Below are positions 5,945 through 24,380 of a DNA stretch of 54,721 nucleotides, in pieces. The position numbers and the translations under genes are program-made. Within the stretch, counting starts at the first letter, position 1. Each line of letters begins with the position of its first letter. A model generated the notes under the pieces. It searched no databases and had not been told where the DNA came from. It was given only the letters and a program-made list of their open reading frames with translations. Source of the stretch: an uncultured Gammaproteobacteria bacterium. GTDB taxonomy: Bacteria; Patescibacteriota; Patescibacteriia; JAHIZJ01. The stretch is taken from contig CAYJKP010000002.1 in assembly GCA_964371245.1 (NCBI GenBank), forward strand, positions 46,239-100,959. The letters are read 5' to 3'.

Positions 5945-8900
5945 TTACGATATTGTAATCGTTAGCGTGCCAGAATAATCACCAATTCGCCGGAGATTTA
6001 GGTTGCCGATGGATAACACCGGTTCGATGTAATATTTGCCCATGCCATAGCTCGGGTTTCCGGGGCAGCCGGTTGTGCACGCGTCCGCATCAACAACCGT
6101 AATGCTCGAATCAGGATCCAATGTGTTACTCGAGGCGGCGCAGACGCCGGCGCTCGGACATGAGCCGAGTTCGGCGCCATAGCGGGCGGTTACCGTGTCA
6201 TTTGGATCGAAGGTAACGTCGCCCGCTCGGATGAGATCATGATTGTACCAGCCGGTGGCGGTATAGGTCGATGCGCCGATTTGCAACCCGTAGACCAAAT
6301 AATATTGATTCCTATTTATCTGTAATGGTGTATGAGGCAGATAGGCGTACGTGCCCGTTCCGATATAAATAGCATTATGCCAAGCCGAACCGTCATATTC
6401 CGTATAATAAAGGTATGTACCTAAGTCTACGTCAGTGACGTTATAAAAAACCCACAAGCTCGTGCCATCGGTCGTAATCGATGGATTCGACGCGGTGGAA
6501 CCCACTACTGAACCATCGTAGATAGTTTCTTCGCCTCCCCACGATCCGTTGTACTTCCGGAGGCGGATCTTACCGATATCAGCGATTCCTACGGTTTCCA
6601 CGTATGTTAAATATATGTTACCGCCGCTGTCGCCGATCGCAGAGTATCCATTGCCGGGATCAGCGGTATCGATCTGCGCAGCGCCGTTCCAGGAACCCGT
6701 ATACGTGTCATAGGTAAGCTTAGTTGCTGAATTGCGATAGAAGAGCATGACTTTATCGTTTGCGTACAATACAAGCGAAGGATCGTCGTTCGTCATCGCC
6801 CAGCTCCAAGAGGAAGCCCAGCTTCCCCCGCTCGGTTTACGATAGACCGCGATGCCGTTGCTCGCAGATGCGCCCTTGACTGCTACCATGAGGTCGCCGT
6901 CAGATTCCGCCACGATCGAACATTCCGTATAGACTATTCCGCCACCAGGGGCCACGACTGTTTCTTCGCCCCCGATCGACCATTGCGTGCCGGATTTTGT
7001 CAGGAGACGGTAATTTATGCCATCCCCTCTTTCGTAGCAGAGATGGATATTCTCGCTCGCGTCCATATAGGTCGCCGGGATACTGCTTGACTCTCCGGCG
7101 CCCAGCGGTGATCCGGTAATGGCTTCGGACCAGGTAGCCGTCTTGTCAGAGCTTTTTTTAAACCTCACCGACGTGCCGTCATTGTAGGCAACGACAATGA
7201 TGCCGTCGACAGTCGCCGCGATATTTCTCGTCTGAACGGTCGGTAAACCGTTTGTGCTTTGCGAATAAAACGAGCCGGTCGTAAGGGAGCGCAGATGCTC
7301 GAGCGTCGCGACCGCCGACCAGCCCACGCCCGTACCGCGATCGTCCCAAACCTCGATTTCCTGGCTATTCGACTGAAGCAGGGATGCAGTGGAATCGCCG
7401 GCCGTGCCCAGCGTATAGTCCGTAAACGCGACGCTGGCTGGGCCGTTGTCGCTCAATGAAAAAGTGGCCGTTGTGGTCAGATTCGGATACGAAAAGCCGC
7501 CGGTGGGATTGATCGCCACCGCCAGTGAATTAACCGTGTCATAGGCGCGAAAATAATAAGTTGTGCTCGCGCTAACATTATTGCCCCAGATTGTAAACTC
7601 AAACTCAGTTATTTTATCGGCCGTGAAATCGAAGGTTGATGACGTGCTTCCCGATTCATTATATGTGCCGCTGGTATCGGTATCGCTTAAGACTCGGCTG
7701 TCGATCGTGCCATCATCAGTCGCATTATCGCCATCGTAATAGCACCAAATAGAAAAAGAACACAGACCGACTTCAACCACATTGGTTGCCGTGGCGAACG
7801 TTGAGCTTGTTGAATATTGCAGCTTGAAACGGATGTTATCCTCTCCAGCACCGCCGAGTTCGGCAATTGATAGGCGCAGTTTAATCGGCTCTTTTTTCCC
7901 GATTTTGTCGGGAGGGACGGCGTTTTCTGCCGCGTATGGTACGACCGGCGTGGCCACATCCTCGTCACCATACATCCGCCAGTTCTGCGAATAGGGCGAA
8001 AATATATTACTCACGTTGAAGCGGAAGTCGATATCGTAATAATCATAGTACGTCCAGTTCGCATCAGACGTGCACGTCGTAGTGCAGTACCCGCCCCGCG
8101 AGGCCGTGGCGTTATAATTAAGATTATAATAGTCGCCGCCAGCCGCAATATACGAATAATTTGCCGCTGTCTGGTAATAACATGACGTTGTGGCGGAAGT
8201 CGTGAGCTGGACGCGATATGTTTGGCCCGTCTTCAGATCCACGGTGCTTGAAAGCGCCACGTCATACCACGTGAGAGTTGTGGTTACGGCCGCGGCAGTA
8301 ACGACTGTTCCGGTGGCGAGCTGCGTATCACTGCTATCACGAATATCATATGTCAGGTCAGCGGTTGGGATGCTGCCGCAGGCGCCTGCTTTTTGGATGT
8401 AGAAACCGACCGTGTCGGTCTTCTTTGACGGGCCGTAGACCGTAATCTTTTCAGCCCGGGAATAGTTGACGTAAATAGCCCAATTGGTGTAGGTAGTGTT
8501 TGAATTTCCTTCATCAGTGGCTCCATCAATAAAATAGATAGGTTGGTATCCTTGATTGGACCAAGAAGTACCATTGTACCATTCTGTGTTCGACGCCACA
8601 TCACTGACGTTCCGGTACGGGGTCATGAGGTTGTTCGGCGTTTCCCGCCGGATGCCGATATAATTGGACCCCCCGATAGTGCCAGAAACATACTGGACGA
8701 CGATGTGGTACACCGTACCGGCCGTGAGCGACGGCTGGGCATTTCGCGCAAACGAAAATACGTTCCACCCTGTTGCAGTCGGGGCATTATCGACATACGA
8801 ACTCGCGACGCTGCCGGAAAGCCAGGTTCCAGAAGGGTCGCCGCTAGAATCAGACTGCAAGCCAAACCGATACGTCGGCGATGACACTACGGCGTGCAGA

Positions 8901-10384: not shown

Positions 10385-10469
10385 ATTAGACCGCCAATAA
10401 ATCAGAATAATAACCGTTGGACGGAAAAGTGAAAGCGCCGGATCATTTCCCCTCCCGTCGCATCGCTGT

Positions 10470-12158
10470 TTATTTACTCTCCGGCGTTAATCGATAAAAG
10501 ACAAAATCGTCGATCATGACCCCTTCCTGGTCAGAACGATTTTCCAAGATGCTCGTGATTTTATAGGTCGCGCCCTGCTCGTCCGTTTCATAGCCGTAAT
10601 AATAGTTCGGGTGTTTTGGATCAAGCGGCACCATCTCGAGATACCCCTTATCCTTCAGCTCAACTTGAAACACATTATTTTCATCGGTCGTTTTACTCCG
10701 ACCGGCGACAATCGGATAGTGGCCTTCCTTTGCCTTGTAGGCTTCAAGCGCCGCCTGGATGGTGTGCAAATCGGCTTTGCGCTGGTTGTCAACTTTTATC
10801 TGCTCGCCGAGGACAACCCGCAAGCGAGCGTCTTCCTCCTGCTGCTGCACGTTCATCTGTTCTACTCGTTGCCGGACCTTCTCTTCCTTCCACCAGTGCC
10901 GATAATAGATCGCGCCGCCGATTGCGACGAGGATGATGGCGAGAATAATGACGTTGCGTTTGCTTCGGAAAAACGATTTGAAGAATGACAGCCAGAGATT
11001 CTCTCTTGGAATCATTATTTGCTGGCCGGGCTCGAGTTTGTATGGCGGTTTCAGTTTGTTGACTCGGGCGAGATATTTCCAATTTGCCTGATATTGGGAG
11101 GCAATGCTGTCAATCGTATCCCCCGCGACCACCGTATGAACACGCATCTTCGACTGTTCCTTGACGACTATCAGCTGAAAGAGCAGCCGGAAAATCACAG
11201 CCAGCGCGATCATCAAGCCGATGAGAATCAACAGCCGGTATGGGATGATCCAGACGTCAATCGTTTTTGTTAGCGGCCCGCCGCCTTCATAGGACACGTC
11301 AACGGTTGTTCGAAATTTGCCGATAAACGGCGGGTCGTTCCAATTCACTGGGATGGTTATGTCTTTGCCTGGCATGACCATGCCGAAACTCATCCGATCA
11401 TAGGTCTTGATTGTCCGGCCAAATATGTTTTTTATCCGGATCTGGCCAAACGGCTCAACCCGGACATTGCCGCCATTATGGAGAACGAGTGAATATTGAA
11501 CCGCTGGTTTAAAACCGAGGTATTCAAGCACCCGATCCCACCAGATTATTTCCTTTTGGAACGTCAACCGGCTGTAAAATTTGTAGTTAATTTGGGTAAA
11601 GTCGAGATTTTTGTGAATTTCGCCGGGCACCGTGACATACATGCGCACGCCGACTCGGGTGACAATGCCGATACCGACGCCCTGACCATGCGGCGTCTGC
11701 TCCTTCACCTCCTGCATGACGATTGCCCCGAAATGCTCACCCACGTCAATATTGTCTTTCGGTACCGTCACGGTAAACGGTACTTCTATCTCTTTGTGCG
11801 CCGGCACCACGACCGAGCTTTGGCTCATTTTTACCCAACTGCCGACGTCCTGTTTCGGGGCGTTGTTTTCGAGAGGAGCAAAAGCGCCGTCAGACGTCGT
11901 TTCCGCGTCCACCGCATTGAGCAGGAATGTCAGTGTTTCGTCACTATTATTTGAAATCAAAGCGGCATCTTCCTTCGTCTCGCCGGGGTTGATCGTATAA
12001 ATAAACCAGGAATCAGAATACTTAACGCTCGGATCCGGGTGCGCCGGCATGATACCGCGATCACCAACCGCGAGGGCTGAAACATTAGACGCATGGCCAA
12101 ATAAAAATAGCAGGCCACAGGCGAAGAAGAAAAGTTGAAGGAAGATCTTTTTAGTCAT
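10470..12158 (-). CDS. DUF916/DUF3324-type (WxL-interacting) membrane protein fused to LysM and a C-terminal T2SS-G/pseudopilin-like domain
   Basis: WFIYTINPGETKED...NAVDAETTSDGAF...DVGSWV...EVPFTVTVP...GEHFGAI...RVGVRMYVTVPG (DUF916 pattern); LHNGGNVRVEPFGQIRIKNIFG (DUF3324); TM; HTVVAGDTIDSIA...LARVNKL...LEPGQQIMIP (LysM); TM; DNQRKADLHTIQAALEAY...YP...PLDP. Confidence 0.8.
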   Translation of the reverse strand: MTKKIFLQLFFFACGLLFLFGHASNVSALAVGDRGIMPAHPDPSVKYSDSWFIYTINPGETKEDAALISNNSDETLTFLLNAVDAETTSDGAFAPLENNAPKQDVGSWVKMSQSSVVVPAHKEIEVPFTVTVPKDNIDVGEHFGAIVMQEVKEQTPHGQGVGIGIVTRVGVRMYVTVPGEIHKNLDFTQINYKFYSRLTFQKEIIWWDRVLEYLGFKPAVQYSLVLHNGGNVRVEPFGQIRIKNIFGRTIKTYDRMSFGMVMPGKDITIPVNWNDPPFIGKFRTTVDVSYEGGGPLTKTIDVWIIPYRLLILIGLMIALAVIFRLLFQLIVVKEQSKMRVHTVVAGDTIDSIASQYQANWKYLARVNKLKPPYKLEPGQQIMIPRENLWLSFFKSFFRSKRNVIILAIILVAIGGAIYYRHWWKEEKVRQRVEQMNVQQQEEDARLRVVLGEQIKVDNQRKADLHTIQAALEAYKAKEGHYPIVAGRSKTTDENNVFQVELKDKGYLEMVPLDPKHPNYYYGYETDEQGATYKITSILENRSDQEGVMIDDFVFYRLTPESK

Positions 12159-12888
12159 GTTTTTTCGCTAAGCATAATATTGAAACACCAAACGGAAAGT
12201 TAAAATACTTGAGAATGTACGCCTCGAGCCGGAGCAACAGGACAAAAAACCCATTCAACCAGCCCGGCAACAACACGTAGGAGGTTTTTGGCTGTCCATC
12301 AGACCAGAGACTCGTAATTAACCGGTAGAAAACGATCGGGAGGAATAGGAAGGAAATGCAATAGCTGCGTTTAATCGTCTCAAAGCCGGCGGCGTTCAGT
12401 TTCCGATGCATATCCGATAACACGTAGCGTCGATAGTGGTGCAGCGCTTCGTCATGCCGCGACCAAAGAAACTGGTACGCAGGCGACAACAGAAAGAAAA
12501 TTCCGCCGGGTTTCAACACGCGATAGACGTTTTCAATGGCTTTTTCGTCGTTCTTGAGGTGTTCCAAGATATCAAAAGCCGTCACGGCATCGTAGGAATT
12601 CTCAGGAATTGTGAGGTTCTCGACATCGCCCTGACGAACCTCGGTAATTCCCCGCCGCTGGCAGAATTTCAGGGCCTCGGGTGAACAATCTATCCCCTCT
12701 ACTTTACCAAACTTTCGCAATATTTCAAAATTAATGCCTGTTCCGCAGCCGAGGTCTAATATTTCAACATCTGAATCGGTTTTTGTCAAATACTTTTTCA
12801 ATAATACCTCAATAATCTTCCGCCGGCCTTGATGCCACCAGTAATGTGTCTCTAAATCATACATTTTTTGATATTCCCCGATTTTCAT
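12151..12888 (-). CDS. Class I SAM-dependent methyltransferase (type often found in glycan loci)
   Basis: ILDLGCGTG motif I; YDAVTAFDILEHL; RVLKPGG; LWSRHDEALHHYRRY. Confidence 0.9.
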   Translation of the reverse strand: MKIGEYQKMYDLETHYWWHQGRRKIIEVLLKKYLTKTDSDVEILDLGCGTGINFEILRKFGKVEGIDCSPEALKFCQRRGITEVRQGDVENLTIPENSYDAVTAFDILEHLKNDEKAIENVYRVLKPGGIFFLLSPAYQFLWSRHDEALHHYRRYVLSDMHRKLNAAGFETIKRSYCISFLFLPIVFYRLITSLWSDGQPKTSYVLLPGWLNGFFVLLLRLEAYILKYFNFPFGVSILCLAKKHD

Positions 12889-14414
12889 TGTCGGGCCGTT
12901 TTTCGAATGATTATTGTGGCCATGGTATCGACATAGACCTCGTGCCAGGCTGGGTCGTGCCGAAGTAATTCAGCCAAGCGGTGATCGTGACGCAAAATTA
13001 CCCAATTCACCTGATATGAATCCAGAAGACTGCGCCAATTTTCATCGAGTCGGGTGATGGCCTGCCAGTCTTGATACACATTTTTTCCGTCCTGGCGCCA
13101 AATGGCCATGCGGCCGTCGATAAAGACCTTCTTGTCAGGCAGGTTCCAGAGCAGATATCCACCCCAATCATATTCATTATACATCGCTCCAGCCGGAAGA
13201 TGGCTTTTCAAATATTGAACTGCGTCGTATGGATACGTATTGGCCAGCGCTTTTGGCGACGCACTGGCCTGCCAATAGGTCGATACTTGAGACCAGGCGG
13301 CCAGTCCGAGTGCGGCCACACCAATACTTATGACAATGATATTTTTCGTCATCCGCTCAATGGCCTCTGACGGCCAAGCTTGAACCAGTAATATCCAAAG
13401 CGGGGTGACCACTACCATAAACAGTGGCAGATATCGCCAACCAGTCAGCGCCAAAAAGAAAAAGACAACCGCGATAAATGTAAGGGTGTAATCAATCTTC
13501 TTCCACCCCCGTATCATGAGCAATACTAATAGTGCTCCAAAGAGCAATAATTCCAGGCCTGGAATATGCTGGAGACTGACCGACTGCCATTCATTAATCG
13601 TATTGCGGACATCAGCCGAGCCAACAGTCTGGATAAACGTATTATAGATCTCATGGTATAGCCGAAGACCGTAGGGGTTAACGAGCGTGATGAAGGCGCT
13701 GCCAGTTCCGACCGCGGCTAATTGGATTAAGCGGCTTAGCCGGAGCGTCCGAACGCTTGGCGTGCGTTTTGCGACGAGCTCCCCGATCGACTGATACCAG
13801 CGCTTGAGCACAGGTCGACTCAGTTCAGCCACAATAACCAAACCGATGATAAAAAGGCCGAGTATAAAACCGCCGTGGAGATTTGCCCACAGAAGAAAGA
13901 CGAGCGGGAGAAAATAGAGTGCTCGGCCTTTTTCGTTGGTAATAAATCGGTACAGAATAAACACAACGAGACTCAGTCCCAGTAAAGTGATCACTTGCGG
14001 CCGGACACCGAGCAACGGACCGCTCACGACCGCACCGAGTAACACGGCTAATGCTTGCAGACGCGCATCAGCCGAAATAATCTTCGCGGCCAAGCCAAAA
14101 GCAACCAGAGCGAGTAGGGAAAATATCACGGCGGCAATGATCCAGCCGGCCGGCCAACCGAGCGTCGCCAATCCATACAGACCGACGTCGGTCAGCCATT
14201 CATGCGCGATGACAGGATATTCGGGAAAAGTGTGCGAGAATTGATCGGTCGTTGGTACCTGTTTCTGCTCCCAGATATATTGTCCGGTCCGAATGTGCCA
14301 CCCAAGATCTGGATCAAGCAGCGGATGAAAGGTAAGGAAAAATGAAATACTAAGCAGCAGGCCAATGAATATTTTCTTCCGCCACGTTTTTTTATTTTGT
14401 TCGTTTCTTATCAT
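12885..14414 (-). CDS. Polytopic membrane protein, probable GT-C fold glycosyltransferase (paralog 2)
   Basis: About 11-13 hydrophobic segments; DPDLGWHIRTG, HEWL, WANLHGGF, NPYG; soluble C-terminal domain with YNEYDWGGYLLW...FIDGR. Confidence 0.7.
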   Translation of the reverse strand: MIRNEQNKKTWRKKIFIGLLLSISFFLTFHPLLDPDLGWHIRTGQYIWEQKQVPTTDQFSHTFPEYPVIAHEWLTDVGLYGLATLGWPAGWIIAAVIFSLLALVAFGLAAKIISADARLQALAVLLGAVVSGPLLGVRPQVITLLGLSLVVFILYRFITNEKGRALYFLPLVFLLWANLHGGFILGLFIIGLVIVAELSRPVLKRWYQSIGELVAKRTPSVRTLRLSRLIQLAAVGTGSAFITLVNPYGLRLYHEIYNTFIQTVGSADVRNTINEWQSVSLQHIPGLELLLFGALLVLLMIRGWKKIDYTLTFIAVVFFFLALTGWRYLPLFMVVVTPLWILLVQAWPSEAIERMTKNIIVISIGVAALGLAAWSQVSTYWQASASPKALANTYPYDAVQYLKSHLPAGAMYNEYDWGGYLLWNLPDKKVFIDGRMAIWRQDGKNVYQDWQAITRLDENWRSLLDSYQVNWVILRHDHRLAELLRHDPAWHEVYVDTMATIIIRKTARQ

Positions 14415-14498
14415 TGATCTAAGTGTAGCAAATTACCGTTGCCGTATCAAAAAACGGGCCGAGCCCGATCCGGCGAGTGTTTTGTATAAACATCGTAA

Positions 14499-16034
14499 TT
14501 ATTCTTGCGAGCCTCGGCGCACCAAAATCGAATACGCCGCATCTTCATAAACGGTTTCCCAATTACCGGTATCTTTCATTGCCTTCGTGACCGCGAGATT
14601 CTTTCGAACCAGTGCATAACTGACGTTATATTTGTCCAGGGCTTCTTCCCAACCCGCATCGAGATGACCGAGCTTCATCCAATCAAGGTAGACGTTTTTT
14701 CCATTCAGTTCCCAGATAGCCATCCGGCCGTCGATAAAAACCTTTCGTTCGGGATAGTTCCAAACGAGATAACCGCCGTAGTTATACTCATTTAACATTT
14801 CACCCTTCAGGGGACGGGCTTTGAGATATTGAACTGCCGCGTAGGGATAGCCGCCCTTGTCCGCCGCCTTGGCCGGATCAATGCCGAACTCCAAGAGCCC
14901 GGTGATCTGCTGCCGGCCAATGATAATGGCGGCAAAAACGAGTATCAAAAGGAAAAAATTTCGCTTGACGATCCGAGCGAGCGTATCACCCGTCAAGTGT
15001 TGTGCAATCATCACCCAAAAGGGCGTGATCGAGATCATCAGGAGCGGCAGGTTCCGCCAACTCGACATTCCAAGATAGAAGAAGACGGCGGTGATGCATA
15101 AATGGGTGAAATTTATCTTTTTCCAGGCGAAGAGAAGCAACAGCCCAAAAAGAATCAGGTAGATATTAAACTGCATGCTGAGCTGCTGCGATAAACTCAC
15201 CGGCGTCCATTCGCCGATGGTCTGCCGAACGAGCGCCGATCCGGTCGTGTTTATGAAGGTGTTGTAGACTTCATAATAGATTCTCAAGCCGTATGGGTTT
15301 ATGAGCGTGGCCGCGCCACTCACCAACCCGACGCCGGCGAGAGTAAACAAGCTCCGGCGGGACAACACGCTCAGCTCAATGGTTTTCTTTCGCCAGCGCT
15401 GGTAGATCTTCGCATACGTCTTCTTAAATATGGCGCGCAGCAATTCCACCAGCCAGAAAACAGCCAGCGCAAATAAGCCTAAAGAAAAACCGCCATGGAA
15501 ATTTACCCAGACGGCGAATAGCAGGGGAAGAAAATAAATGGCCCGGCTCCGTTCATTCACCCGAAATCGATAGACGATATAAAACACCAAGGCCAAACCG
15601 AGCATGCTGATCATTTGCGGCCGGACGCCAAGGATCGGCAGGCTGACGAGCAGCGCGAGCAGCGCCGCCAAAATCTGGTATTCCCGCCGCGCCGGGAAAC
15701 TCCGGCCGGCAATATAAAAAGCTGAGCCAGCGATCAACGAAAAAACGACTGACATGGCAATCGGACCGGCGGTCGTTCCCAGACTGTTCAAACCATAGAG
15801 GGTGAGATCCGACAACCACTCGTGAGCGATCCAGGGATATTCCGGAAAGGTGTGAGAAAATGGATCAGTGCTGGCCAGCGCCTTGTGTTCCCAGATATAC
15901 TGGCCGGAACGTAGGTGCCAGCCTAAATCCGGGTCCAGCGGAACCCGCATACCAAGAAAAATCATGATCAGAATAACTGAACCAAAAAAGACGGTTTTCG
16001 GGGTAATGATTTTCCTGAGCCAAGCCGTACTCAT
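14499..16034 (-). CDS. Polytopic membrane protein, probable GT-C fold glycosyltransferase (paralog 1)
   Basis: Same motifs as 12885-14414 (DPDLGWHLRSG, HEWL, WVNFHGGF, NPYG, NEYNYGGYLVW, FIDGR). Confidence 0.7.
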   Translation of the reverse strand: MSTAWLRKIITPKTVFFGSVILIMIFLGMRVPLDPDLGWHLRSGQYIWEHKALASTDPFSHTFPEYPWIAHEWLSDLTLYGLNSLGTTAGPIAMSVVFSLIAGSAFYIAGRSFPARREYQILAALLALLVSLPILGVRPQMISMLGLALVFYIVYRFRVNERSRAIYFLPLLFAVWVNFHGGFSLGLFALAVFWLVELLRAIFKKTYAKIYQRWRKKTIELSVLSRRSLFTLAGVGLVSGAATLINPYGLRIYYEVYNTFINTTGSALVRQTIGEWTPVSLSQQLSMQFNIYLILFGLLLLFAWKKINFTHLCITAVFFYLGMSSWRNLPLLMISITPFWVMIAQHLTGDTLARIVKRNFFLLILVFAAIIIGRQQITGLLEFGIDPAKAADKGGYPYAAVQYLKARPLKGEMLNEYNYGGYLVWNYPERKVFIDGRMAIWELNGKNVYLDWMKLGHLDAGWEEALDKYNVSYALVRKNLAVTKAMKDTGNWETVYEDAAYSILVRRGSQE

Positions 16035-16060
16035 ATCAATCAGTATACCAAAATATTCCT

Positions 16061-16096
16061 AAAACGAAAACCGCCCCAATAATCTCGGGGACGGCG
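16061..16096 (-). terminator. Intrinsic terminator after the small WxL genes
   Basis: CCG-T-CCCC GAGATTATT GGGG-CGG followed by TTTTCGTTTT. Confidence 0.55.
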
Positions 16097-16117
16097 TTAA
16101 ACGCGTTGTCGCTCGGT

Positions 16118-16696
16118 TTAGGTAACGGTCAGCGTCAACGTGGCCGAATAGTTGCCGGCTGCATAGGACGGCTGTTGCGTGAAGTTAAGGAGTGTGTTGT
16201 CGATCCGATAGGCACCCAAGCCGTTGCTGGCCGTGGCCACCATCAGATTGCGCGTCGCGTTCAGATATTGATCGTCGGTGCCGGCCGACACACCCGTCGA
16301 GCTAGCTCCGTTTAAATTTGCGATGTCGCCGGGTGACCAGCGCAGGGCGTTGCTTAAGGTAATCTGCCGATTGGCATCATTTACATCGACGTAATTCTCA
16401 ATCGATCCGGTCGTGGCTGACCAGCCAGCGCCGGTACCGCGATAATCGGTCACCAGGACATTATTCATGTTGATCGCCGCGTTCTGTAACAAACCAGCCG
16501 CGATATTGCCGAATGAGATATTCGTGTTCTGAGCCGCGATGTCTAAGGAGCCGGCGGTGATGTTTTGGTAGAGCTCGGAATTCGCCGTGTTGGCCGCCCG
16601 CGATACTTCCAATGAACCAAAAACCATGATCAGCGTAAAAGCAATAATCAACGTACTGAAGATTTTCTGGGTTAGGGCTTGTGTTTTGTTTACCAT
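16118..16696 (-). CDS. Small secreted WxL-type protein, copy A
   Basis: Signal peptide ending VSRA; VTDYRGTGAGWSAT (WxL D-x-R-G-T-x-x-G-W motif); C-terminal GNYSATLTLTVT. Confidence 0.8.
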   Translation of the reverse strand: MVNKTQALTQKIFSTLIIAFTLIMVFGSLEVSRAANTANSELYQNITAGSLDIAAQNTNISFGNIAAGLLQNAAINMNNVLVTDYRGTGAGWSATTGSIENYVDVNDANRQITLSNALRWSPGDIANLNGASSTGVSAGTDDQYLNATRNLMVATASNGLGAYRIDNTLLNFTQQPSYAAGNYSATLTLTVT

Positions 16697-16716
16697 GGAA
16701 GTATGGAAAGTATTTG

Positions 16717-17295
16717 TTAGCTGACGGTCAACGTCAATGTGGCTGTGTAGTTACCGGCTTGGTAGGACGGCTGTTGAGTGAAATTAAGAACGGTGTTGCT
16801 AATACGATAGGCGCCCAAGCCGTTGCTGGCCGTGGCCACCATCAGATTCCGGGTGGTATTGAGGTAGACATCGTCGGTGCCGGCGGTCACGCCAGTTATG
16901 ATTGAACCGTTTACGTTTCCGACATCGCCCGGCGACCACTTGAGAGCATTATTTAAAGTTATCTGTTTATTCGAATCGGTGACATCCACGTAATTCTCGA
17001 TCGATCCGGTCGTGGCTGACCAGCCAGCACCAGTCCCGCGGTAATCAGTCACCAGGACATTGTTCATGTTGATCGCCGAGTTTTGAGAATAACCAGCGGC
17101 GATATTGCCGAATGAGATATTCGTGTTCTGAGCGGCGATGTCTAAGGAGCCGGCGGTGATGTTTTGGTAGAGCTCGGAATTGGCCGTGTTAGCCGCCCGC
17201 GATACTTCCAATGAACCAAAAACCATGATCAGCGTAAAAGCAATAATCAACGTACTGAAGATTTTCTGGGTTAGGGCTTGTGTTTTGTTTACCAT
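16717..17295 (-). CDS. Small secreted WxL-type protein, copy B
   Basis: As copy A; N-terminus identical to A and C-terminus identical to C. Confidence 0.8.
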   Translation of the reverse strand: MVNKTQALTQKIFSTLIIAFTLIMVFGSLEVSRAANTANSELYQNITAGSLDIAAQNTNISFGNIAAGYSQNSAINMNNVLVTDYRGTGAGWSATTGSIENYVDVTDSNKQITLNNALKWSPGDVGNVNGSIITGVTAGTDDVYLNTTRNLMVATASNGLGAYRISNTVLNFTQQPSYQAGNYTATLTLTVS

Positions 17296-17315
17296 GGAAG
17301 TATGGAAAGTATTTG

Positions 17316-17891
17316 TTAGCTGACGGTCAACGTCAATGTGGCTGTGTAGTTACCGGCTTGGTAGGACGGCTGTTGAGTGAAATTAAGAACGGTGTTGCTA
17401 ATACGATAGGCGCCCAAGCCGTTGCTGGCCGTGGCCACCATCAGATTCCGGGTGGTATTGAGGTAGACATCGTCGGTGCCGGCGGTCACGCCAGTTATGA
17501 TTGAACCGTTTAAATTCGTGATGTCACCCGGTGACCAGCGCAGTGCGTTACTCAAGGTAATCTGTTTATTCGAATCGGTGACATCGACGTAATTCTCGAT
17601 CGATCCGGTCGTGGCTGACCAGCCAGCGCCGGTACCGCGGTAATCGGTCACCAGGACATTGTTCATGTTGATCACGGAGTCCTGAGAATAACCGGCAGCC
17701 AAATCGCCAAACGATATATTCGTGTTCTGGGCCGCGATGTCTAATGAGCCGGCGGTGATGTTTTGGTAGAGCTCGGAATTCGCCGTGTTGGCCGCTCGGG
17801 ACACTTCAAACGATCCATAGACCATCAATACGGTGAAAACAAGAATAATTACCGCAAATACTTCTTCTATTAAAAGCTTTTGTCGAGTCAT
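17316..17891 (-). CDS. Small secreted WxL-type protein, copy C
   Basis: As copy A, with a distinct signal peptide; ends GNYTATLTLTVS. Confidence 0.8.
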   Translation of the reverse strand: MTRQKLLIEEVFAVIILVFTVLMVYGSFEVSRAANTANSELYQNITAGSLDIAAQNTNISFGDLAAGYSQDSVINMNNVLVTDYRGTGAGWSATTGSIENYVDVTDSNKQITLSNALRWSPGDITNLNGSIITGVTAGTDDVYLNTTRNLMVATASNGLGAYRISNTVLNFTQQPSYQAGNYTATLTLTVS

Positions 17892-18054
17892 TTTACTTTT
17901 TGTTTTTTATTTTTTTACCCAAGAAAAAACACTCTTCCCAAAAGCAGAGCGTTTTCAGAACCGAATGTATCTTTGTTATCTTTGTGTTTGCCCTACTTTT
18001 GTTTTTTTTGGATTTTGGGCGTTTTTCTCTGTAAAAAAGAACCTTACATACTTA

Positions 18055-18083
18055 AGTATATCGCATTTTTTCCAATTTGTCAA
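18055..18083 (-). promoter_or_regulatory. Near-consensus sigma70 promoter driving the small WxL genes
   Basis: TTGACA-17 nt-TATACT; about 155-nt leader before ATG 17891. Confidence 0.8.
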
Positions 18084-18102
18084 GTTTATTCTCTAATCCC
18101 GG

Positions 18103-19908
18103 CTATAAAGGCTGACGGTTGACGAAACGGCGCATTCGTTTCCAAAAAATGGCTAGCGACAGCAACAAGGCTACCGAAACAAGCGAAATGTTTCGTCCAG
18201 CTGCTCGAATCGGTGTTAATCCAAATTTTACCTCAATTTTATGACTACCAGTTGGAATTATTATTTGCATCACGCCTACGTCGCTTGTCACCAGTGGCTC
18301 TCTCACCTGGCCATTGATTGCAACCTGCCAGCCCGGAAACCACAACGTATTTATTTGAAGGATGGATTCATTCTTTGCATCAATAGTGGCCGTATAGCGA
18401 GCTGCCTCAATCACGGGCGAATTGATTGATGCGTCACCGCTGACAATTTCGAGTTTCTCCGGAAATTTTATCGATGCGTCTGCCTGCATCAAAACGGCCT
18501 TCTTATAATCCGCAAGCGCTTGCGACATGAGCTCATGAAGCCGATCAACGGAAACGGCTTTTGAAAAGATGCTTGGTATCTCTGAAAAGAAATAAACTTG
18601 CGTGTTCAGTTGATCCGTCTCGAGGATGTTTCGGATTTCTGTTTCCCGCTCGCGGAACGGACGATAGTCTGCATCCGGCAACGGCGGCAGGGTGTATTCC
18701 GGCAAGGCGTAGGAAGAATTCAGGACCAGCGTTGCTCCGACCAGAATGATCGAAAGTACAGCGGGAGCAGAAAACCGGCGAATACTTTTTCGATAGACAA
18801 CCAGGACACCGCTCAGTATGCTCACCGAGAGACTAACCAAAGCCAGCCAGCGCCACGGAAACTGAAAGTCACGCAATACGCCAATGTGATCCCAGATGAA
18901 TTTCGAGCCGCGGCCGGTCATAAATACCGCCAGTGAAAAAACTGCCAGCCACCACCAGATGGTCGCCCCATAGGTCCGGCGCGTTTCTGGTTTTTCAAGC
19001 AGCGTATATATTGCTGTGATAACGACAATCAAGCCAGTTACGCCAATTAGAAAAATATATTCTTCCCAGTTCCCGATGATTAATTGTTTCAGGTTTAAAA
19101 AATATTTTGCATAGTCGCTGAAGAATGGGTACCAGAGGTTGAAGTTCGCTTGGCGCATCTCCACGATTGCAGGCAGCCAAAAAAACGCGCCGAGTCCTCC
19201 ACCAAAAAGTATAGCGAGTAGTGCGGTGAATATTTTTCGCCAGCGACGCCACGCCAGAATGGCGGCATAGACAACGGCGATCGGCAAAAACATCACTGCT
19301 AAGGCGTTGTTCGTGAGTAACAACGCGCCGGTCAATAAAGCAATCGCGAGAAAATATTTTCTGGCCGGAGCCGCTAGATATCGTGTCAGGGCGATTAAGA
19401 GAAATGGCCACAACCCCATGGCGAGAAGTTCGGCGTACGAGCCCCGAAGGTAGAGACTACCGAGGTGGTACGGCGACCAAATATAGAGCGTGGCGGAGGC
19501 CAGCCCGGCCCAAGAGTTTTTCCAGATTTGCCGGCTCCAAAAAAACATCGAAATATAGGCCAGAATAACGCTCACGACAATAACGGCCTTCACCGAGTTC
19601 AAAAGGTTGAATCCAATAAGATGGAACGCTTCAGCGAGATAATAAAAACCTGGCTGGATAAAATTGAAAATCGGCGCGCCGTAGCCGATCCAAACGTCGG
19701 GCGCCCAGCGCGGCTGGATGTTTCCCTGCCGAATGCCGAGATCGAACTCATACAGCCAGTTCATGTAGAGATTCCGGTCGTGATTTGACGGAAAACCGGC
19801 TTGCATGATCGCCGCCAAACATAAATACACGACAAGACCGCTGATACAAACAAACAGGGCAACTTTGTAATATTTCTTTATCCAGCTGAGATTATTTCTT
19901 TTCTCCAT
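18103..19908 (-). CDS. PTPS_related / YfhO-like membrane protein (probable GT-C glycosyltransferase), paralog 2; start placed at ATG 19908 (or 19914)
   Basis: GFPSNHD, PRWAPDVWIGYGAPIFNF, YLRGSYAELLA, LGAFFWLP, FQFPWRWL, and a C-terminal NTLWFPGWQVAING...GSHKIEVKF. Confidence 0.78.
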   Translation of the reverse strand: MEKRNNLSWIKKYYKVALFVCISGLVVYLCLAAIMQAGFPSNHDRNLYMNWLYEFDLGIRQGNIQPRWAPDVWIGYGAPIFNFIQPGFYYLAEAFHLIGFNLLNSVKAVIVVSVILAYISMFFWSRQIWKNSWAGLASATLYIWSPYHLGSLYLRGSYAELLAMGLWPFLLIALTRYLAAPARKYFLAIALLTGALLLTNNALAVMFLPIAVVYAAILAWRRWRKIFTALLAILFGGGLGAFFWLPAIVEMRQANFNLWYPFFSDYAKYFLNLKQLIIGNWEEYIFLIGVTGLIVVITAIYTLLEKPETRRTYGATIWWWLAVFSLAVFMTGRGSKFIWDHIGVLRDFQFPWRWLALVSLSVSILSGVLVVYRKSIRRFSAPAVLSIILVGATLVLNSSYALPEYTLPPLPDADYRPFRERETEIRNILETDQLNTQVYFFSEIPSIFSKAVSVDRLHELMSQALADYKKAVLMQADASIKFPEKLEIVSGDASINSPVIEAARYTATIDAKNESILQINTLWFPGWQVAINGQVREPLVTSDVGVMQIIIPTGSHKIEVKFGLTPIRAAGRNISLVSVALLLSLAIFWKRMRRFVNRQPL

Positions 19909-19927
19909 ATACATTCCCAGAAAGTGC

Positions 19928-21706
19928 TCACACTTTTTTCTTCGGCCACCGCCAAACACATATCAAACCGAGTCCAATGAGGGTGACGAATGAAACCAAA
20001 TCGGCTACCGCTCGAATTGTCGTATTGTGATAGTTTAGAACCAGTGTGTGCTGGCCCGGCGGAACCATAAATTCCATCAGACCGTAGCTTGAATTCATAA
20101 TGATTGTCACCGGCTGATTGTTCAGCTGCGCCGTCCAACCGGGGAAATAAAATGTGTTGATCCGAACGCGCGCTTCAGTTTGTGCTGTGATCGCGTACTC
20201 TTGCCGAGTCGTGCGTAGATTGACGGGGATGACGGTAGCGTTTCCCCGAATAACCTCCGTCTTGGGAAAATCAACGGCCTGCCCAGCAAGAATGCGGTCG
20301 CGCGTTTGATAAATATTTTTTTCAACCAACCCCTCAAGCGCGTCGAGATTATTGTAACGCGGAAAGATAGCTGTTTTTATTCCGAACGTGTTGTATTGCT
20401 CTAAAGTAAGAAATTGGTCGACGAGTGCCTGCTTCGGTTGGTAATGCCAATCGGCTTTTTTAGGAAAATATCCGTCCGGCGGACCAAGCCAGTCAGTCGA
20501 CCCGAGAATCAATAGAATAATGAGCGCCCCGCTGATTGGCAAAAACGAATACGTCCAGCGCGGACGGATCTTGCCAGCCAACCAGGAAAATAATTTCTGC
20601 AATTCTGGCCAAATGATCAGACCGGCCAGGAAAGCAACGCTCAAATCAAATAGCCCTAAAAACCTCCAAGGGAACTGAACGTATTTCAACAGCGGTACGG
20701 CTTCCCAAACAGGACGCGAATACACGGTTGTGGCGACGAGTGCGCCAATTGCGAGTAAAAGAAAATAGATGGCTGGGCGCGAAGTTTTCTGGGTGCGCCA
20801 ACTTTTTACTATCAAAACGGCGCCAACAAGACAGATAAGGCTGGCCACAAAGCTTACCTGAAGAAACACGACGCCGTTTGACCAGTAGTTCGAAAATAAT
20901 ATTTCCTTCAGTGAACTGAAATTATTATGAAAATCGTACGGTCCAGAGGTAAGATTGTCGAGATTTAAATACTGTCGCTCAAAAAATGCCGGTACCCAAA
21001 AAAAAGTACTGAGCAAAAAGCCAGTGGCCACGGCAGCCGCCTGAACCAAATAGGTCCGGATGTTCCGTTTCGAGAACAGAAGGATGAATAGAAGAATCGG
21101 CGGCAGGAATATCAGCATCGAAATATTATGCGATAAAACCAGGGCGGCAATGGCTCCGGCCAGGAGAAGAAAATTGCGCCGCGACTGAACGCGTCCGAGT
21201 CGCGAGGCGGCATAGAGGCATAACGGCGCAATACTCATCGCCAGATATTCGGAAAAAGCGCCCCGGTCGTACACCAGGCCGATGTGGTACGGCGCGAGCG
21301 TGAAAACGGCAGCTGAGAAGACTGCGCCCAGCCGACCAAAATATCGACGGGTAAATAGGTACATAAACCAGCCGCCAGCGAGAGTCGCCAAAATCAGCGT
21401 CAGCTTAACCGAGGCAATGATGCTGAACCCGATGAGATGCCACAGCTCGGCGAGATAAAAAAACAACGGCTGGGTAAAATTGAAGAGCGGGCTGCCGTAG
21501 CCGATCCAGACGTCAGGCGACCAGCGAGGCAAAAAATGTCCCTCGCGTATCCCGGCGTCAAATTCGCTTTGCCAGATCGGATATAATTCGAGATCGTGAT
21601 TTCTCGGATAACCGCTTTTGAGTAACGAAAAAACGGCGGCGAAGATCACCAGGCCGACCAACGCCACAATGAAGATAGTTTTCGATGAGGGCGGTCGCAC
21701 GAACAT
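19928..21706 (-). CDS. PTPS_related / YfhO-like membrane protein (probable GT-C glycosyltransferase), paralog 1
   Basis: GYPRNHD, PRWSPDVWIGYGSPLFNF, YDRGAFSEYLA, SHNIS, FFWVPA, VQFPWRFL, NTFYFPGW...GQHTLVLNY. Confidence 0.78.
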   Translation of the reverse strand: MFVRPPSSKTIFIVALVGLVIFAAVFSLLKSGYPRNHDLELYPIWQSEFDAGIREGHFLPRWSPDVWIGYGSPLFNFTQPLFFYLAELWHLIGFSIIASVKLTLILATLAGGWFMYLFTRRYFGRLGAVFSAAVFTLAPYHIGLVYDRGAFSEYLAMSIAPLCLYAASRLGRVQSRRNFLLLAGAIAALVLSHNISMLIFLPPILLFILLFSKRNIRTYLVQAAAVATGFLLSTFFWVPAFFERQYLNLDNLTSGPYDFHNNFSSLKEILFSNYWSNGVVFLQVSFVASLICLVGAVLIVKSWRTQKTSRPAIYFLLLAIGALVATTVYSRPVWEAVPLLKYVQFPWRFLGLFDLSVAFLAGLIIWPELQKLFSWLAGKIRPRWTYSFLPISGALIILLILGSTDWLGPPDGYFPKKADWHYQPKQALVDQFLTLEQYNTFGIKTAIFPRYNNLDALEGLVEKNIYQTRDRILAGQAVDFPKTEVIRGNATVIPVNLRTTRQEYAITAQTEARVRINTFYFPGWTAQLNNQPVTIIMNSSYGLMEFMVPPGQHTLVLNYHNTTIRAVADLVSFVTLIGLGLICVWRWPKKKV

Positions 21707-21828
21707 ACTGTCTTAATGGTAACAACGCCTTTATTCTATCGGATAACCACCCAATCAGCAACTAGCCGGTATGGTCAATATTTGGTACACTGACAGGGTC
21801 GAGAATAATCTTTATACCCGCGGCTCAT

Positions 21829-22779
21829 ATGAAAAAAGCGAAAATCATCATCATTGTTATCAATCTCGCGATCATTGGCTTTCTGATCTGGTTTTTATGG
21901 GGTTTGGATTATAAAAAAATCGGCGATCTGCTCGCCCAATCGAATAAAATTTATCTTATTATCGGGCTACTTTTCTTCGCCCTGAGTTTGCTGTTTAAAA
22001 TCACCCGCTTCGGCGCGGTGACTCGATACTACGGTTATAAATTCTCATTCACACAAACGTCGTTCATCCAGATGGTCGGCATCGCCATCGCCATGATGAC
22101 GCCGGGCCGGCTCGGCGAGGCGACGAAAATATACCTACTGAAACAGCGCCAGGTGCCCGTGCTCACCGGAACCGCCTTGACGATCTTCGAGCGCGTGTTC
22201 GATTTTCTCTTTCTCAGCCTGGCGGGCCTCTTTTTCGTCCTCCAATTTATGAAGGGCTCAAAACTCACCTGGGGTTTTATCGCCCTCCTGGTCGTGATGA
22301 TTGGCTTATTGATCGTTCTGCGCAACCTTCACTGGCTGACCCGTTTCGTGCCGGCGCGGTTTCGTAACATATTTGTGAACTTCACGAGCGTCAAGGCGGG
22401 CGGCCAGAAAGCCCAACTCATTCCCCTCACACTGTTCACCATTCTCACCTGGTCGACCCAAGCCGTGCTCTCCTGGTCGGTGCTGGCCTCGCTCGATGTT
22501 CATGTTTCTCCCTTGGCCGTCTTAGGCGTTGAAGCAATTGGGACGCTCGCCGCCATTCTCTCCTTTCTGCCGCTTGGCATTGGCGCGATGGATCTCTCAA
22601 TGCTTTTCCTCTACTCGCTCTTGGGCGTGGGCAATGAGCCCGCCACCATCGCGGTCTTTATCTCGCGCACGGTCGGTTTTCTCGCTCCGCTCCTGATCGC
22701 TCTGATTATGACGAACGTCGCCGGTACCTCGTTTAAGGAGATTCGGGCGGGTCTCTCACAGCAAAAACCGAGCGCCTAA
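21829..22779 (+). CDS. Lysylphosphatidylglycerol synthase TM-like (UPF0104) flippase-like membrane protein
   Basis: About 8 TM segments; TPGRLGEATK, IFERVFD and PLGIGAMD motifs. Confidence 0.85.
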   Translation: MKKAKIIIIVINLAIIGFLIWFLWGLDYKKIGDLLAQSNKIYLIIGLLFFALSLLFKITRFGAVTRYYGYKFSFTQTSFIQMVGIAIAMMTPGRLGEATKIYLLKQRQVPVLTGTALTIFERVFDFLFLSLAGLFFVLQFMKGSKLTWGFIALLVVMIGLLIVLRNLHWLTRFVPARFRNIFVNFTSVKAGGQKAQLIPLTLFTILTWSTQAVLSWSVLASLDVHVSPLAVLGVEAIGTLAAILSFLPLGIGAMDLSMLFLYSLLGVGNEPATIAVFISRTVGFLAPLLIALIMTNVAGTSFKEIRAGLSQQKPSA

Positions 22780-22815: not shown

Positions 22816-22823
22816 TCTTGAGC

Positions 22824-24380
22824 ATGACTCCCTTACCGTCTGACAAAGTAGACCTCAAGCCTTCGCCTGAGAACAAACCGGTGGTTGAGCTAAAAAAGCC
22901 TTCTGACCAGAAAAAGAAACGCTGGCCGATTTTTATATTAAAGATAGGCTTGTATCTTCTCGTCTTTCTGCTGATTCTTGGCTTCACCTTTTCGTATAAA
23001 GTCATTCTCTCGGGCGAGGGCATTTTTAGCCGGCAAAACGTCGGTTTTTTCGATCAAATCAAGCGTTTGGTAACCAGCGGCGATAAACAGATAAAGGGTG
23101 AGGAGAATGACCGGGTAAACATCCTGCTCGTCGGGATGGGCGGGGCTGGCCACGATGGCGCCTATCTCGCCGATACGATCATTGTCGCCAGTTTGAAACC
23201 GTCGACGAAAGAAGTCGCCCTGCTATCAATCCCGCGCGATCTCGTGGTGGATATCCCGAAATACGGCTATCGCAAGGTCAATAATGCCAACGCCTTTGGC
23301 TATCTCCAGACGCCTGAACAAGGCGGCGAATGGCTGCTCCAGGATGTCCTGGAAACAACCCTCGGCCAACCGATCCAGTACTATGCGTCCGTTGATTTTG
23401 ACGGTTTCCGAAAAATCGTCGATCTGGTCGGCGGCCTCGACATTACTGTCGAAAACGCGTTTACCGATTATGAATATCCCGACTACAGTCACGGATATCA
23501 AACCATTTCATTCAAAGTAGGCTCGCAAACCATGAACGGCGAGAAAGCCTTGCAATATGTCCGTTCGCGCCATGGCAATAACGGCGAGGGCTCGGATTTC
23601 GCACGCTCGCGCCGGCAACAAAACGTCCTCTCCGCCTTGAAGAAAGAAATGCTCTCTCTGGGAACCTTAACAAATCCCAAAAAAATAATGGATATTTCGG
23701 ATGCGCTCGGCACCCACCTGAAAACCGACATGGAACCGTGGGAAATTCTCCGGTTGGCGAACTTGGTGGGCGATCTCGATACGTCAAAAATCATGACGCG
23801 GGTGCTCGATACGACGGCGGGCGGACTCCTCAAAACCACTACCGGTATTGATGGCGCCTACTTGCTTGAACCCCGGATCGGTACCGGCAAGTATTCTGAA
23901 ATACAAGACCTTTTTGAGAACATCTTCCAATACAGCGAGCTCGTGAAAGAAGGGGCAAATATTGAGATTCAAAACGGCACAACCATTGCCGGACTCGGGG
24001 ATACGATCGCCCGGCAACTGCAAAGTCTTAATTTCAATGTGACGAAAGTAACGAATGCCCAGGACCGCACCTATACCGAAACCCAAATCTACGATTTGAC
24101 GCTTGGCCAAAAACCGGAAACGCTGAAACAGTTAAAAAGCGTCATCGGCGGAACGGTCAATTCCTCGGCGCCGCCGTTCTTAACGAATAATAGCAACGGC
24201 TCGTTCGAACAAGATCTCACCAACAGCTCGCTTGAAAACTCGCTCAGCAATATGAGCAACACCCCGGAGCCAAAATCGGACAACATCGATATCCTCGTCA
24301 TCCTTGGCACGGATGCGAAAAAACCCGACACGCCCAAGAAATCCACCACCAACACGAACGCTAATACCAATCGTTATTAA
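22824..24380 (+). CDS. LCP (LytR-CpsA-Psr) family protein with LytR_C domain
   Basis: One TM helix; VNILLVG...LADTII...LLSIPRDL...KVNNANA...ALQYVRSRH...SDFARSRRQQ; IEIQNGTTIAGLG (LytR_C). Confidence 0.93.
   Translation: MTPLPSDKVDLKPSPENKPVVELKKPSDQKKKRWPIFILKIGLYLLVFLLILGFTFSYKVILSGEGIFSRQNVGFFDQIKRLVTSGDKQIKGEENDRVNILLVGMGGAGHDGAYLADTIIVASLKPSTKEVALLSIPRDLVVDIPKYGYRKVNNANAFGYLQTPEQGGEWLLQDVLETTLGQPIQYYASVDFDGFRKIVDLVGGLDITVENAFTDYEYPDYSHGYQTISFKVGSQTMNGEKALQYVRSRHGNNGEGSDFARSRRQQNVLSALKKEMLSLGTLTNPKKIMDISDALGTHLKTDMEPWEILRLANLVGDLDTSKIMTRVLDTTAGGLLKTTTGIDGAYLLEPRIGTGKYSEIQDLFENIFQYSELVKEGANIEIQNGTTIAGLGDTIARQLQSLNFNVTKVTNAQDRTYTETQIYDLTLGQKPETLKQLKSVIGGTVNSSAPPFLTNNSNGSFEQDLTNSSLENSLSNMSNTPEPKSDNIDILVILGTDAKKPDTPKKSTTNTNANTNRY

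Follow-up and report, generated by a model that had tools for sequence, protein, structure and literature searches.

A stretch of 54,721 nucleotides (the window hereafter; positions 46,239 to 100,959 of contig CAYJKP010000002.1, assembly GCA_964371245.1, GTDB lineage Patescibacteriota) carries a surface-fiber gene cluster in which WxL and DUF916 genes are interleaved with membrane proteins of the GT-C glycosyltransferase fold. We found that two of these membrane proteins belong to an unannotated GT-C family, and that this family, together with an orthologous membrane-anchored methyltransferase, is a conserved part of the WxL/DUF916 cassettes of Patescibacteria, an arrangement for which no publication was found in the literature. 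Our favored reading, to which we give somewhat better than even chances, is that a Gtr-type lipid-linked pathway transfers a methylated sugar to the WxL fiber proteins. As the GT-C gene stands almost always directly in front of the chaperone gene in relatives, the fiber or its anchoring site is probably sugar-decorated. The block would then be a surface-fiber operon with its own extracytoplasmic glycosylation machinery. Open reading frames and Pfam and NCBIfam scans outline a compact, co-directional minus-strand cluster (5945-21706) that encodes, in order, two PTPS_related GT-C proteins, three small WxL proteins, two paralogous ~510-residue membrane proteins, a methyltransferase, a DUF916-LysM protein, and a 1479-residue protein. 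All of these genes lie where a prior reading of the sequence alone had placed them.

Two structural models carry the fold assignment. The AlphaFold2 model of the second unannotated paralog (P0001, 509 residues, 12885-14414, minus strand) reached a predicted local distance difference test score (pLDDT) of 91.7 and a predicted template modeling score (pTM) of 0.91, and Foldseek against the PDB returned 18 matches at E<=1e-3, all of them GT-C enzymes (STT3, AglB, DPY19, AftA, and ArnT). STT3, AglB, and DPY19 head this ranking, with E-values of 3.5e-7 to 1e-5 and query template modeling scores (TMq) of 0.50-0.61, followed by AftA and ArnT and, at weaker E-values, by ALG9, Pmt4, and AftB. The model of the first PTPS_related paralog (P0004, 592 residues, 19928-21706, minus strand; pLDDT 91.1, pTM 0.92) gave 27 matches at the same threshold, again all GT-C (STT3, AglB, AftA, ArnT, ALG12, AftD, PglB, Emb, and Pmt4), with STT3 on top at TMq 0.41-0.48. 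The other two proteins are tied in by homology: the first unannotated paralog (P0002, 511 residues, 14499-16034, minus strand) is 46% identical to P0001, and the two PTPS_related proteins find each other in phmmer at E 7e-84. Hence all four polytopic proteins are, as judged from these models, of the GT-C fold, which agrees with the GT-C-like character that the sequence-only reading had proposed. Because STT3 also tops the list for the PTPS_related control, an STT3-first ranking is generic for GT-C queries and does not prove a special relationship.

Both PTPS_related proteins score above the gathering cut-off of PF10131 (26.4 bits), P0004 with 67.4 bits (E 1.2e-18, alongside a PMT_2 match at E 8.7e-7) and the second paralog (P0003, a 618-residue open reading frame at 18103-19959, minus strand) with 29.9 bits (E 2.6e-7). 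The probable real start of P0003 is Met16 or Met18, near 19914 or 19908, and its orthologue in locus L003 has 586 residues (labels of this kind denote neighborhoods in relatives, 28 of which were read with the window proteins as queries). The earlier description of the pair as PTPS_related/YfhO-like holds in its first half; neither window protein matches YfhO (PF09586) at E<=0.01, and only some homologues carry a precomputed PF09586 match.

The two ~510-residue proteins have no sequence match in Pfam, NCBIfam, or the PDB, whether searched as single sequences, as a 39-sequence profile, or as 39 members one by one. The family is nonetheless large: a profile search of 1.84 billion cluster representatives (50%-identity clusters) recovered 40,404 members at E<=1e-3, of which 16,310 remain at E<=1e-30, and members with a named source come mainly from Patescibacteria, with some from Nitrospira and Acidobacteria. 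In the P0001 model, 11 transmembrane helices are followed by an outer C-terminal alpha/beta domain of ~110 residues, which gives a separate weak match to the short AglB C-terminal domain 3vu0_B (AglB-S2; E 0.03, target template modeling score [TMt] 0.50). The two motifs reported earlier are present, as DPDLGWHIRTG with YDWGGY...FIDGR in one paralog and DPDLGWHLRSG with YNYGGY...FIDGR in the other.

Conservation was counted across an alignment of 39 family sequences, the same homologues on which the P0001 model was built. Invariant in this alignment are W39, H40, D57, R138, Q140, W176, H180, N246, E275, W276, R327, Y415, G418, G419, D433, G434, R435, and D496. Judged from the positive-inside rule and the order of the helices, the invariant and near-invariant polar residues all fall in predicted outer loops or in the outer C-terminal domain, and together they make up an outer-face set of D34-P-D36, W39-H40, D57, H71-E72-W73, G136-x-R138-x-Q140, W176-x-N178-x-H180, N246-P247, I273-x-E275-W276, R327, Y415-x-W-G418-G419-Y, and F431-I-D433-G434-R435. 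Within the first outer loop, D34 (Asp in 35 of 39 sequences, Glu in 3), P35 (38/39), and D36 (37/39) lie between the first transmembrane helix (residues 2-27) and a helix at 37-50, with a second helix at 73-84; an acidic loop start followed by juxtamembrane helices, as expected of GT-C enzymes, is thus found. In the long outer loop at 246-283, E275 and W276 are invariant and I273 is kept in 34 of 39 sequences, and the Thr of the TIXE motif is not conserved. The Asp of "YDWGGY" occupies a variable position (Asn in 19, Asp in 9, and Gly in 5 of 39), and the loop between the third and fourth transmembrane helices holds an invariant G-V-R-P-Q where a second DXD would be expected.

We therefore assign the family to GT-C, with an oligosaccharyltransferase (OST)-like architecture, and not to STT3. 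Membership in STT3 was considered and rejected: a match to PF02516, the second DXD, and a conserved WWDYG Asp are all lacking, and there are 11 rather than 13 transmembrane helices. PF02516 found no match in the window's own genome at E<=0.01 and matched no family member in 301 Patescibacteria genomes. The motif equivalence with STT3/AglB that had been drawn by eye holds only in part: DPD, IxEW, and WGGY...DGR elements are present, and a second DXD, a conserved WWDYG Asp, and a PF02516 match are absent. Separately, PF02516 made weak partial matches (model positions ~100-245; 11 above cut-off) to other GT-C proteins, of 450-620 residues and outside the family, in 38 of the 301 genomes (L051-L058 and others). 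A bolder proposal is that the DPDxGWH...WGGY...FIDGR proteins constitute a new compact (~500 residues, 11 transmembrane helices) OST/DPY19-like family of protein glycosyltransferases, with a Patescibacteria subfamily dedicated to donor-strand-exchange WxL pili that would move a methylated sugar from a polyprenyl-phosphate donor to Asn-rich pilins, possibly at Asn. We consider this unlikely; if true, bacteria would have their first case of protein glycosylation linked to a donor-strand pilus, and the candidate phyla radiation (CPR) its first defined system of protein glycosylation.

The same residues bear on the possibility that these GT-C-fold proteins have lost transferase activity and serve instead as a membrane platform, an usher-like partner of the DUF916 chaperone during fiber assembly. 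Such a role would fit a gene that strictly adjoins the chaperone gene and is translationally coupled to it, the missing second DXD metal site, and the fact that WxL pili have no known usher. However, D34/D36, H40, D57, R138, Q140, H180, N246, E275, R327, D433, and R435 are invariant or nearly so in members with and without WxL neighbors, including those of Nitrospira and Acidobacteria, which argues for a conserved catalytic site, and a donor-synthesis operon (methyltransferase, GtrA, and GT2) travels with the cassette. We regard a purely structural role as quite improbable.

On a Nitrospira chromosome (L006, 8167-12425), the gene of a family member and that of a carbamoyltransferase share 11 bp, and a convergent gene for a 291-residue GT2 comes next; judging by these neighbors, this member may transfer a carbamoylated sugar.

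The linkage to fiber genes was measured in a phylum sample of 301 Patescibacteria genomes, of which 78 hold the unannotated GT-C family and 111 hold DUF916 (PF06030). Thirty of the 82 family copies score at least 470 bits and are called the closest relatives here, a cut that marks close relatives and not an independent class, as some high-scoring sequences sat in the query alignment; the remaining 52 copies are the remoter ones. Among the closest copies, 26 of 30 have a DUF916 domain within 5 kb, against a chance expectation of ~3% per gene, and 24 of 30 stand directly upstream of DUF916 on the same strand, usually 140-350 bp from the start of the domain. None of the 52 remoter copies is linked to DUF916. 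The linked copies come from three GTDB families (f1, which includes this genome, f33, and f59) and at least 10 genera, and several genomes carry two or three cassettes. A recurrent cassette comprises a small WxL gene, often a 534-residue TMEM260_N-like GT-C, the unannotated GT-C, one or two DUF916 genes, and a large WxL-tailed protein, and the order WxL, GT-C, DUF916, large protein is common to all three families. The co-occurrence across the CPR that the sequence-only reading had called for is therefore found for the unannotated family in its closest Patescibacteria relatives. It is weaker for the PTPS_related genes, which neighbor ~7 of 17 cassettes in a partly lineage-specific manner and are to that extent less convincing as parts of the pathway.

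These counts also address whether the glycosylation and WxL genes are mere neighbors without functional connection. The flippase and LCP genes beside the cluster do sit in a housekeeping-looking plus-strand run with der and pth, and the linkage of flippase, LCP, and in part PTPS_related is lineage-specific. Set against this are the 26 adjacent copies in several genera and three GTDB families, the genomes with two or three independent cassettes, and the gene overlaps of 4 bp and 8 bp described below. For the unannotated GT-C family and the methyltransferase, chance neighborhood is already disfavored, and for the system as a whole we find it scarcely credible.

Two features of the relatives deserve mention in their own right. 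A third GT-C-like family (~534 residues, a faint TMEM260_N match, no NCBIfam match) lies directly upstream of the unannotated GT-C in L005 (8400-10004), L009, L010, L011, L012, L014, L017, and L019; this genome lacks it and carries the unannotated GT-C as a tandem duplicate instead. In L004 (6841-9003), from another CPR lineage, a 720-residue GT2-DUF2079 fusion and a methyltransferase lie directly upstream of the unannotated GT-C and DUF916, and this arrangement seems to handle the donor or transfer step in another way.

The methyltransferase (class I, S-adenosylmethionine [SAM]-dependent; 12151-12888, minus strand; Methyltransf_11 E 2e-24) is joined to both of its neighbors by gene overlaps, and the overlaps noted earlier are real in the sequence. 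The stop of the second unannotated GT-C paralog and the start of the methyltransferase share 4 bp (ATGA, within CAATGAAA), and the methyltransferase stop and the DUF916 start share 8 bp (ATGACTAA). For 11 of the 15 other cassettes, an orthologue of the methyltransferase is encoded at a distance of no more than 10 kb (E 1e-46 to 1e-63, compared with <=1e-11 for paralogs within this genome), and an operon of methyltransferase, GtrA (PF04138), and GT2 stands beside L005/L016, L009, L011, L012, L014, and L020. The GT2 of this operon is DPM1/PgfS-like and resembles PgfS, AglJ, ArnC, and dolichyl-phosphate hexose transferases. This operon in relatives points to a polyprenyl-monophosphate monosaccharide donor, and a polyprenyl-phosphate sugar is therefore the likely donor. 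The methyltransferase carries a C-terminal hydrophobic segment (residues 176-195), kept in most orthologues, and has no signal peptide; its site of action should therefore be the cytoplasmic side of the membrane, with the lipid-linked sugar as the simplest substrate. The methylation step proposed from the sequence alone has thus gained ground, since the methyltransferase is a conserved companion of the GT-C and is found elsewhere in a GtrA/GT2 operon.

Divergent from the cluster, on the plus strand, lies a gene for a stand-alone UPF0104/MprF-type (LPG_synthase_TM) flippase-like protein (21829-22779; PF03706 E 1.3e-35 over residues 9-290; TIGR00374 108.6 bits, cut-off 43.2 bits). UPF0104 has been predicted by Makarova and colleagues to flip lipid-linked sugars, and in archaea it adjoins PMT/STT3-like enzymes and AglD-like GT2s (PMC5898192). 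It is plausible that the adjacent UPF0104 replaces GtrA here as a putative flippase with a putative lipid-linked substrate. The next gene encodes an LCP (LytR-CpsA-Psr) wall-polymer ligase (22818-24380, plus strand; PF03816 E 3.4e-41; LytR_C E 9e-10), after which der, pth, and mfd run on along the same strand. The earlier statement that flippase and LCP flank the block is correct as to position; as dedicated parts of the pathway they fare less well, being linked to the cassette only in this genome and in L003.

The favored pathway would run in four steps. A DPM1/GtrB-like GT2, encoded elsewhere in this genome, would load a monosaccharide onto polyprenyl phosphate at the inner face of the membrane; the methyltransferase would methylate the lipid-linked sugar with cytoplasmic SAM; a flippase, GtrA in other lineages and here probably the adjacent UPF0104, would move it outward; and the GT-C enzymes would transfer the sugar or sugars, perhaps in sequence, to an acceptor from the same operon. 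Candidates for the first step exist on contig C1 of the own genome, which encodes three polyprenyl-phosphate sugar synthase-like GT2s (one ArnC/PgfS-like at E 3e-52, one AglJ-like at E 3e-35, and one of 240 residues). As acceptor we consider most likely a fiber protein that would be modified on leaving Sec, be it the Asn/Ser/Thr-rich small WxL subunits, the large WxL-tailed protein, or DUF916 itself. Production of enzyme and chaperone would stay matched through the translational coupling of the second GT-C paralog, the methyltransferase, and the DUF916 gene. The placement of the GT-C gene immediately upstream of the chaperone gene, to which it is coupled here via the methyltransferase, suggests that the enzyme acts on a product of its own operon.

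The fiber genes themselves have the organization of a WxL/DUF916 surface cluster, in that DUF916 stands next to small and large WxL proteins. Small WxL-like proteins A (17316-17891, a putative major fiber subunit), B (16717-17295), and C (16118-16696), all on the minus strand, are paralogs of ~192 residues each (B matches A and C at E 1e-105). Their Pfam WxL matches (E 0.006, 0.004, and 0.009, respectively) fall below the gathering score, and a custom WxL hidden Markov model (HMM) groups them with small proteins encoded next to DUF916 in 30 loci. The large secreted protein (1479 residues, 5945-10384, minus strand), a putative tip adhesin with a WxL-like C-terminus, has no Pfam match; a near-identical orthologue matches the custom WxL HMM at E 6e-8, and a large protein downstream of DUF916 is conserved in L001, L003, L005, L009, L010, L017, and L019. 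The DUF916 (WxLIP) chaperone-like protein (10470-12158, minus strand; WxLIP_PGBD E 7.4e-12, 45.8 bits, cut-off 27.3 bits; LysM E 9.8e-12; T2SSG E 9.7e-5) consists of a signal peptide, a transmembrane helix, a LysM domain, a second transmembrane helix, and a pseudopilin-like C-terminal domain, with hydrophobic segments at 1-24, 299-335, and 399-422. Because LysM directly follows the first transmembrane helix, it is predicted to be cytoplasmic, an odd location for a glycan-binding module. An LPxTG base or sortase gene was not evident among the open reading frames of the block, in which no motif search was made.

Small WxL protein A is 12% Asn and has six N-x-S/T sequons. Among loci L003-L048, Asn makes up 12.2% of the small WxL proteins in GT-C-linked cassettes and 5.3% in 12 cassettes without these GT-Cs (Mann-Whitney p=5e-4), N-x-S/T occurs 2.96 versus 1.48 times per 100 residues, and a LysM domain is found on DUF916 in 21 of 22 linked versus 2 of 20 unlinked cassettes (Fisher p=1e-8). 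Phylogeny confounds both the Asn and the LysM contrast, the linked cassettes being drawn from three families, and the unlinked set is not strictly free of GT-C: L032 has a PMT_2 protein at a distance of 4 kb, and L038 and L048 hold two polytopic proteins without annotation. These caveats count against our favored reading, as do several further observations. Sequon positions are poorly conserved, any one alignment column holding a sequon in at best 10 of 22 linked proteins. Neither GT2 nor GtrA is encoded in this locus, and phmmer found GtrA nowhere in the whole genome. The flippase and LCP genes occur with the cassette only in this genome and its close relative L003, and 15 other cassettes lack them and use GtrA; they are therefore not core parts but lineage-specific neighbors, possibly recruited. 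Remote family members, including those of Nitrospira, have no WxL neighbors, lie in mixed housekeeping contexts, and show no consistent glycosylation neighbors apart from a GT2 and a carbamoyltransferase in Nitrospira, so the general acceptor of the family is not WxL-specific. Finally, everything beyond fold and linkage, namely glycan, donor, and acceptor, is inferred.

The Asn enrichment was considered as proof of N-glycosylation and rejected, as sequon positions are only partly conserved. Two further composition features of the small WxL proteins are recorded here: they are poorer in Ser plus Thr in GT-C-linked cassettes (19.5% versus 28%), and all 22 linked proteins share an Asn at alignment column 348 ("NLNG"), which none of the six displayed unlinked sequences has. 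Glycosylation of a donor-strand fiber has a precedent in archaea, whose donor-strand pili carry N-glycans, also on the donor strand itself (PMC9245690).

What the sugar is attached to is also where a competing explanation enters. The GT-Cs could instead add sugar to an envelope component other than protein (for example a teichoic-acid-like polymer, a lipoglycan, or peptidoglycan) and so make or mask a wall docking site for the WxL fiber, the LysM tail, or an LCP-attached polymer, comparable to CsbB/GtcA/YfhO acting on lipoteichoic acid or to ArnT. PTPS_related is a clan relative of YfhO, with the PF09586 matches of some homologues in keeping; an LCP ligase and a flippase flank the block; the remoter members outside WxL contexts make a general envelope acceptor plausible; and the co-occurrence of the LysM tail with the GT-C would suit a wall target. 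But the tightest link is to the chaperone gene, at 140-350 bp on the same strand in 24 of 30 copies, which would be unusual for a general wall enzyme; LCP is not conserved with the cassette; and a LysM domain on the cytoplasmic side would not read an outer wall glycan. A wall acceptor is a possibility that we take seriously and still think rather unlikely. Transfer to the WxL fiber proteins remains our preferred reading, and the dedicated lipid-linked glycan and methylation pathway that had been proposed for the WxL fiber emerges partly intact: the fold, the co-occurrence of GT-C and methyltransferase, and a lipid-linked donor speak for it, STT3 membership finds no support, and the case is weaker for flippase, LCP, and PTPS_related.

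Promoter and terminator calls, which are consensus pattern matches only, divide the cluster further. A strong sigma-70-like match (TTGACA-17-TATACT, 11/12) lies at 18055-18083 on the minus strand upstream of the three WxL genes, a terminator-like hairpin follows WxL protein C (16090-16074, minus strand), and a second terminator-like site follows the first unannotated GT-C paralog (14467-14455, minus strand). These scans suggest separate transcription units, one of which would consist of the second GT-C paralog, the methyltransferase, DUF916, and the large protein and would be translationally coupled; the sequencing runs that contain the stretch are DNA metagenomes only and hold no RNA evidence for operon structure. 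The gene at the edge of the window (2-2278, minus strand, running off the window) encodes a large secreted protein, possibly a further surface structure of this neighborhood, in which a T4SS_pilin-like domain at the N-terminus is combined with Big_5 and three TIG/IPT domains. Elsewhere in the genome, a few kb from a phosphoglycosyl-transferase (Bac_transf) and GT4 cluster (C1:646770-652146), lies the gene of a 180-residue protein (C1:656458-657000, minus strand) that has an N-terminal transmembrane helix and is similar to the pseudopilin-like C-terminal domain found in the window's DUF916 protein (phmmer E 2.8e-7).

Patescibacteria are ultra-small, mostly uncultured bacteria, many of which are thought to live attached to other cells. 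Dozens of loci of the kind described here tie a WxL/DUF916 fiber to membrane glycosyltransferases and a methyltransferase. They offer a concrete candidate for a glycosylated surface fiber in the CPR, a lead to the function of a GT-C family of ~40,000 clusters without Pfam, NCBIfam, or structural annotation, and a case in which methylation is built into a lipid-linked sugar pathway. Should the acceptor be the pilin, the family would represent a new class of pilin glycosyltransferase.

Among known systems, the closest in logic are those of the Gtr type, which include GtrA/GtrB/GtrX of Shigella phages, CsbB-GtcA-YfhO acting on teichoic acids, PgfS-PgfM1/M2 in adhesin O-glycosylation of Streptococcus mutans, and ArnC-ArnE/F-ArnT. 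These combine a GT2 polyprenyl-phosphate sugar synthase, a small flippase, and a GT-C acting outside, and the relatives of our cassette likewise carry GtrA and a PgfS/AglJ/ArnC-like GT2. The locus described here differs in holding up to four GT-Cs of two or three families, in its dedicated membrane-anchored methyltransferase, and in being embedded in a WxL/DUF916 fiber operon; in this genome, moreover, UPF0104 stands in for GtrA and the GT2 is unlinked. Fiber-specific GT-Cs are known from other pili: TfpW is the pilin-specific GT-C of Pseudomonas aeruginosa group IV type IV pili, and AglB N-glycosylates archaeal pilins and archaellins. In both cases, as proposed here, a GT-C is encoded beside a fiber subunit gene and a lipid-linked sugar decorates the subunit outside the membrane. 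Those systems serve type IV pili rather than a WxL donor-strand fiber and employ another GT-C family.

STT3 enzymes are characterized by 13 transmembrane helices, two DXD motifs (in EL1 and EL2, the first two outer loops), a TIXE/SVSE catalytic Glu, and WWDYG...DGGK (PMC8342417). The unannotated family resembles STT3/AglB/PglB in that these are the best structural matches of P0001, in the succession of an N-terminal membrane module and an outer C-terminal domain, in the DXD-like DPD that opens the first outer loop, in the invariant Glu of IxEW in a long outer loop (compare TIXE), and in an aromatic-Gly motif followed ~12 residues on by D-G-R (compare WWDYG...DGGK). It departs from them in its length of ~500 residues, its 11 rather than 13 helices, GVRPQ in place of the second DXD, and the variable WWDYG Asp, and its genomic context points to a monophosphate-linked monosaccharide donor rather than a pyrophosphate-linked oligosaccharide. 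The archaeal pairing of UPF0104 (arCOG00899) with the PMT/STT3-like arCOG00563 and an AglD-like GT2 (PMC5898192) likewise sets a stand-alone MprF-type flippase-like protein beside a GT-C; ours is bacterial, from the CPR, with the adjacency confined to this lineage and L003 and with no adjacent GT2.

The fiber genes compare best with the WxL/Csc/Elr clusters of Bacillota, where small WxL, DUF916 membrane protein, and large WxL-tailed protein are likewise co-directional (PMC10599100; bioRxiv 10.64898/2026.10.17.759780). In Enterococcus faecalis, the small WxL protein polymerizes by donor-strand exchange, primed by a membrane-anchored DUF916/DUF3324 chaperone (bioRxiv 10.64898/2026.10.17.759780). 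The Bacillota clusters comprise small WxL, large WxL, a DUF916-DUF3324 chaperone, and an LPxTG anchor, whereas the chaperone here has a LysM tail. No glycosyltransferases are described for them in the WxL literature examined, and the string "glycos" does not occur in the preprint. This WxL chaperone-pilin system has been reported as confined to Bacillota (bioRxiv 10.64898/2026.10.17.759780, October 2026); in our sample, by contrast, 111 of the 301 Patescibacteria genomes have PF06030 matches, 67 of which exceed the Pfam cut-off.

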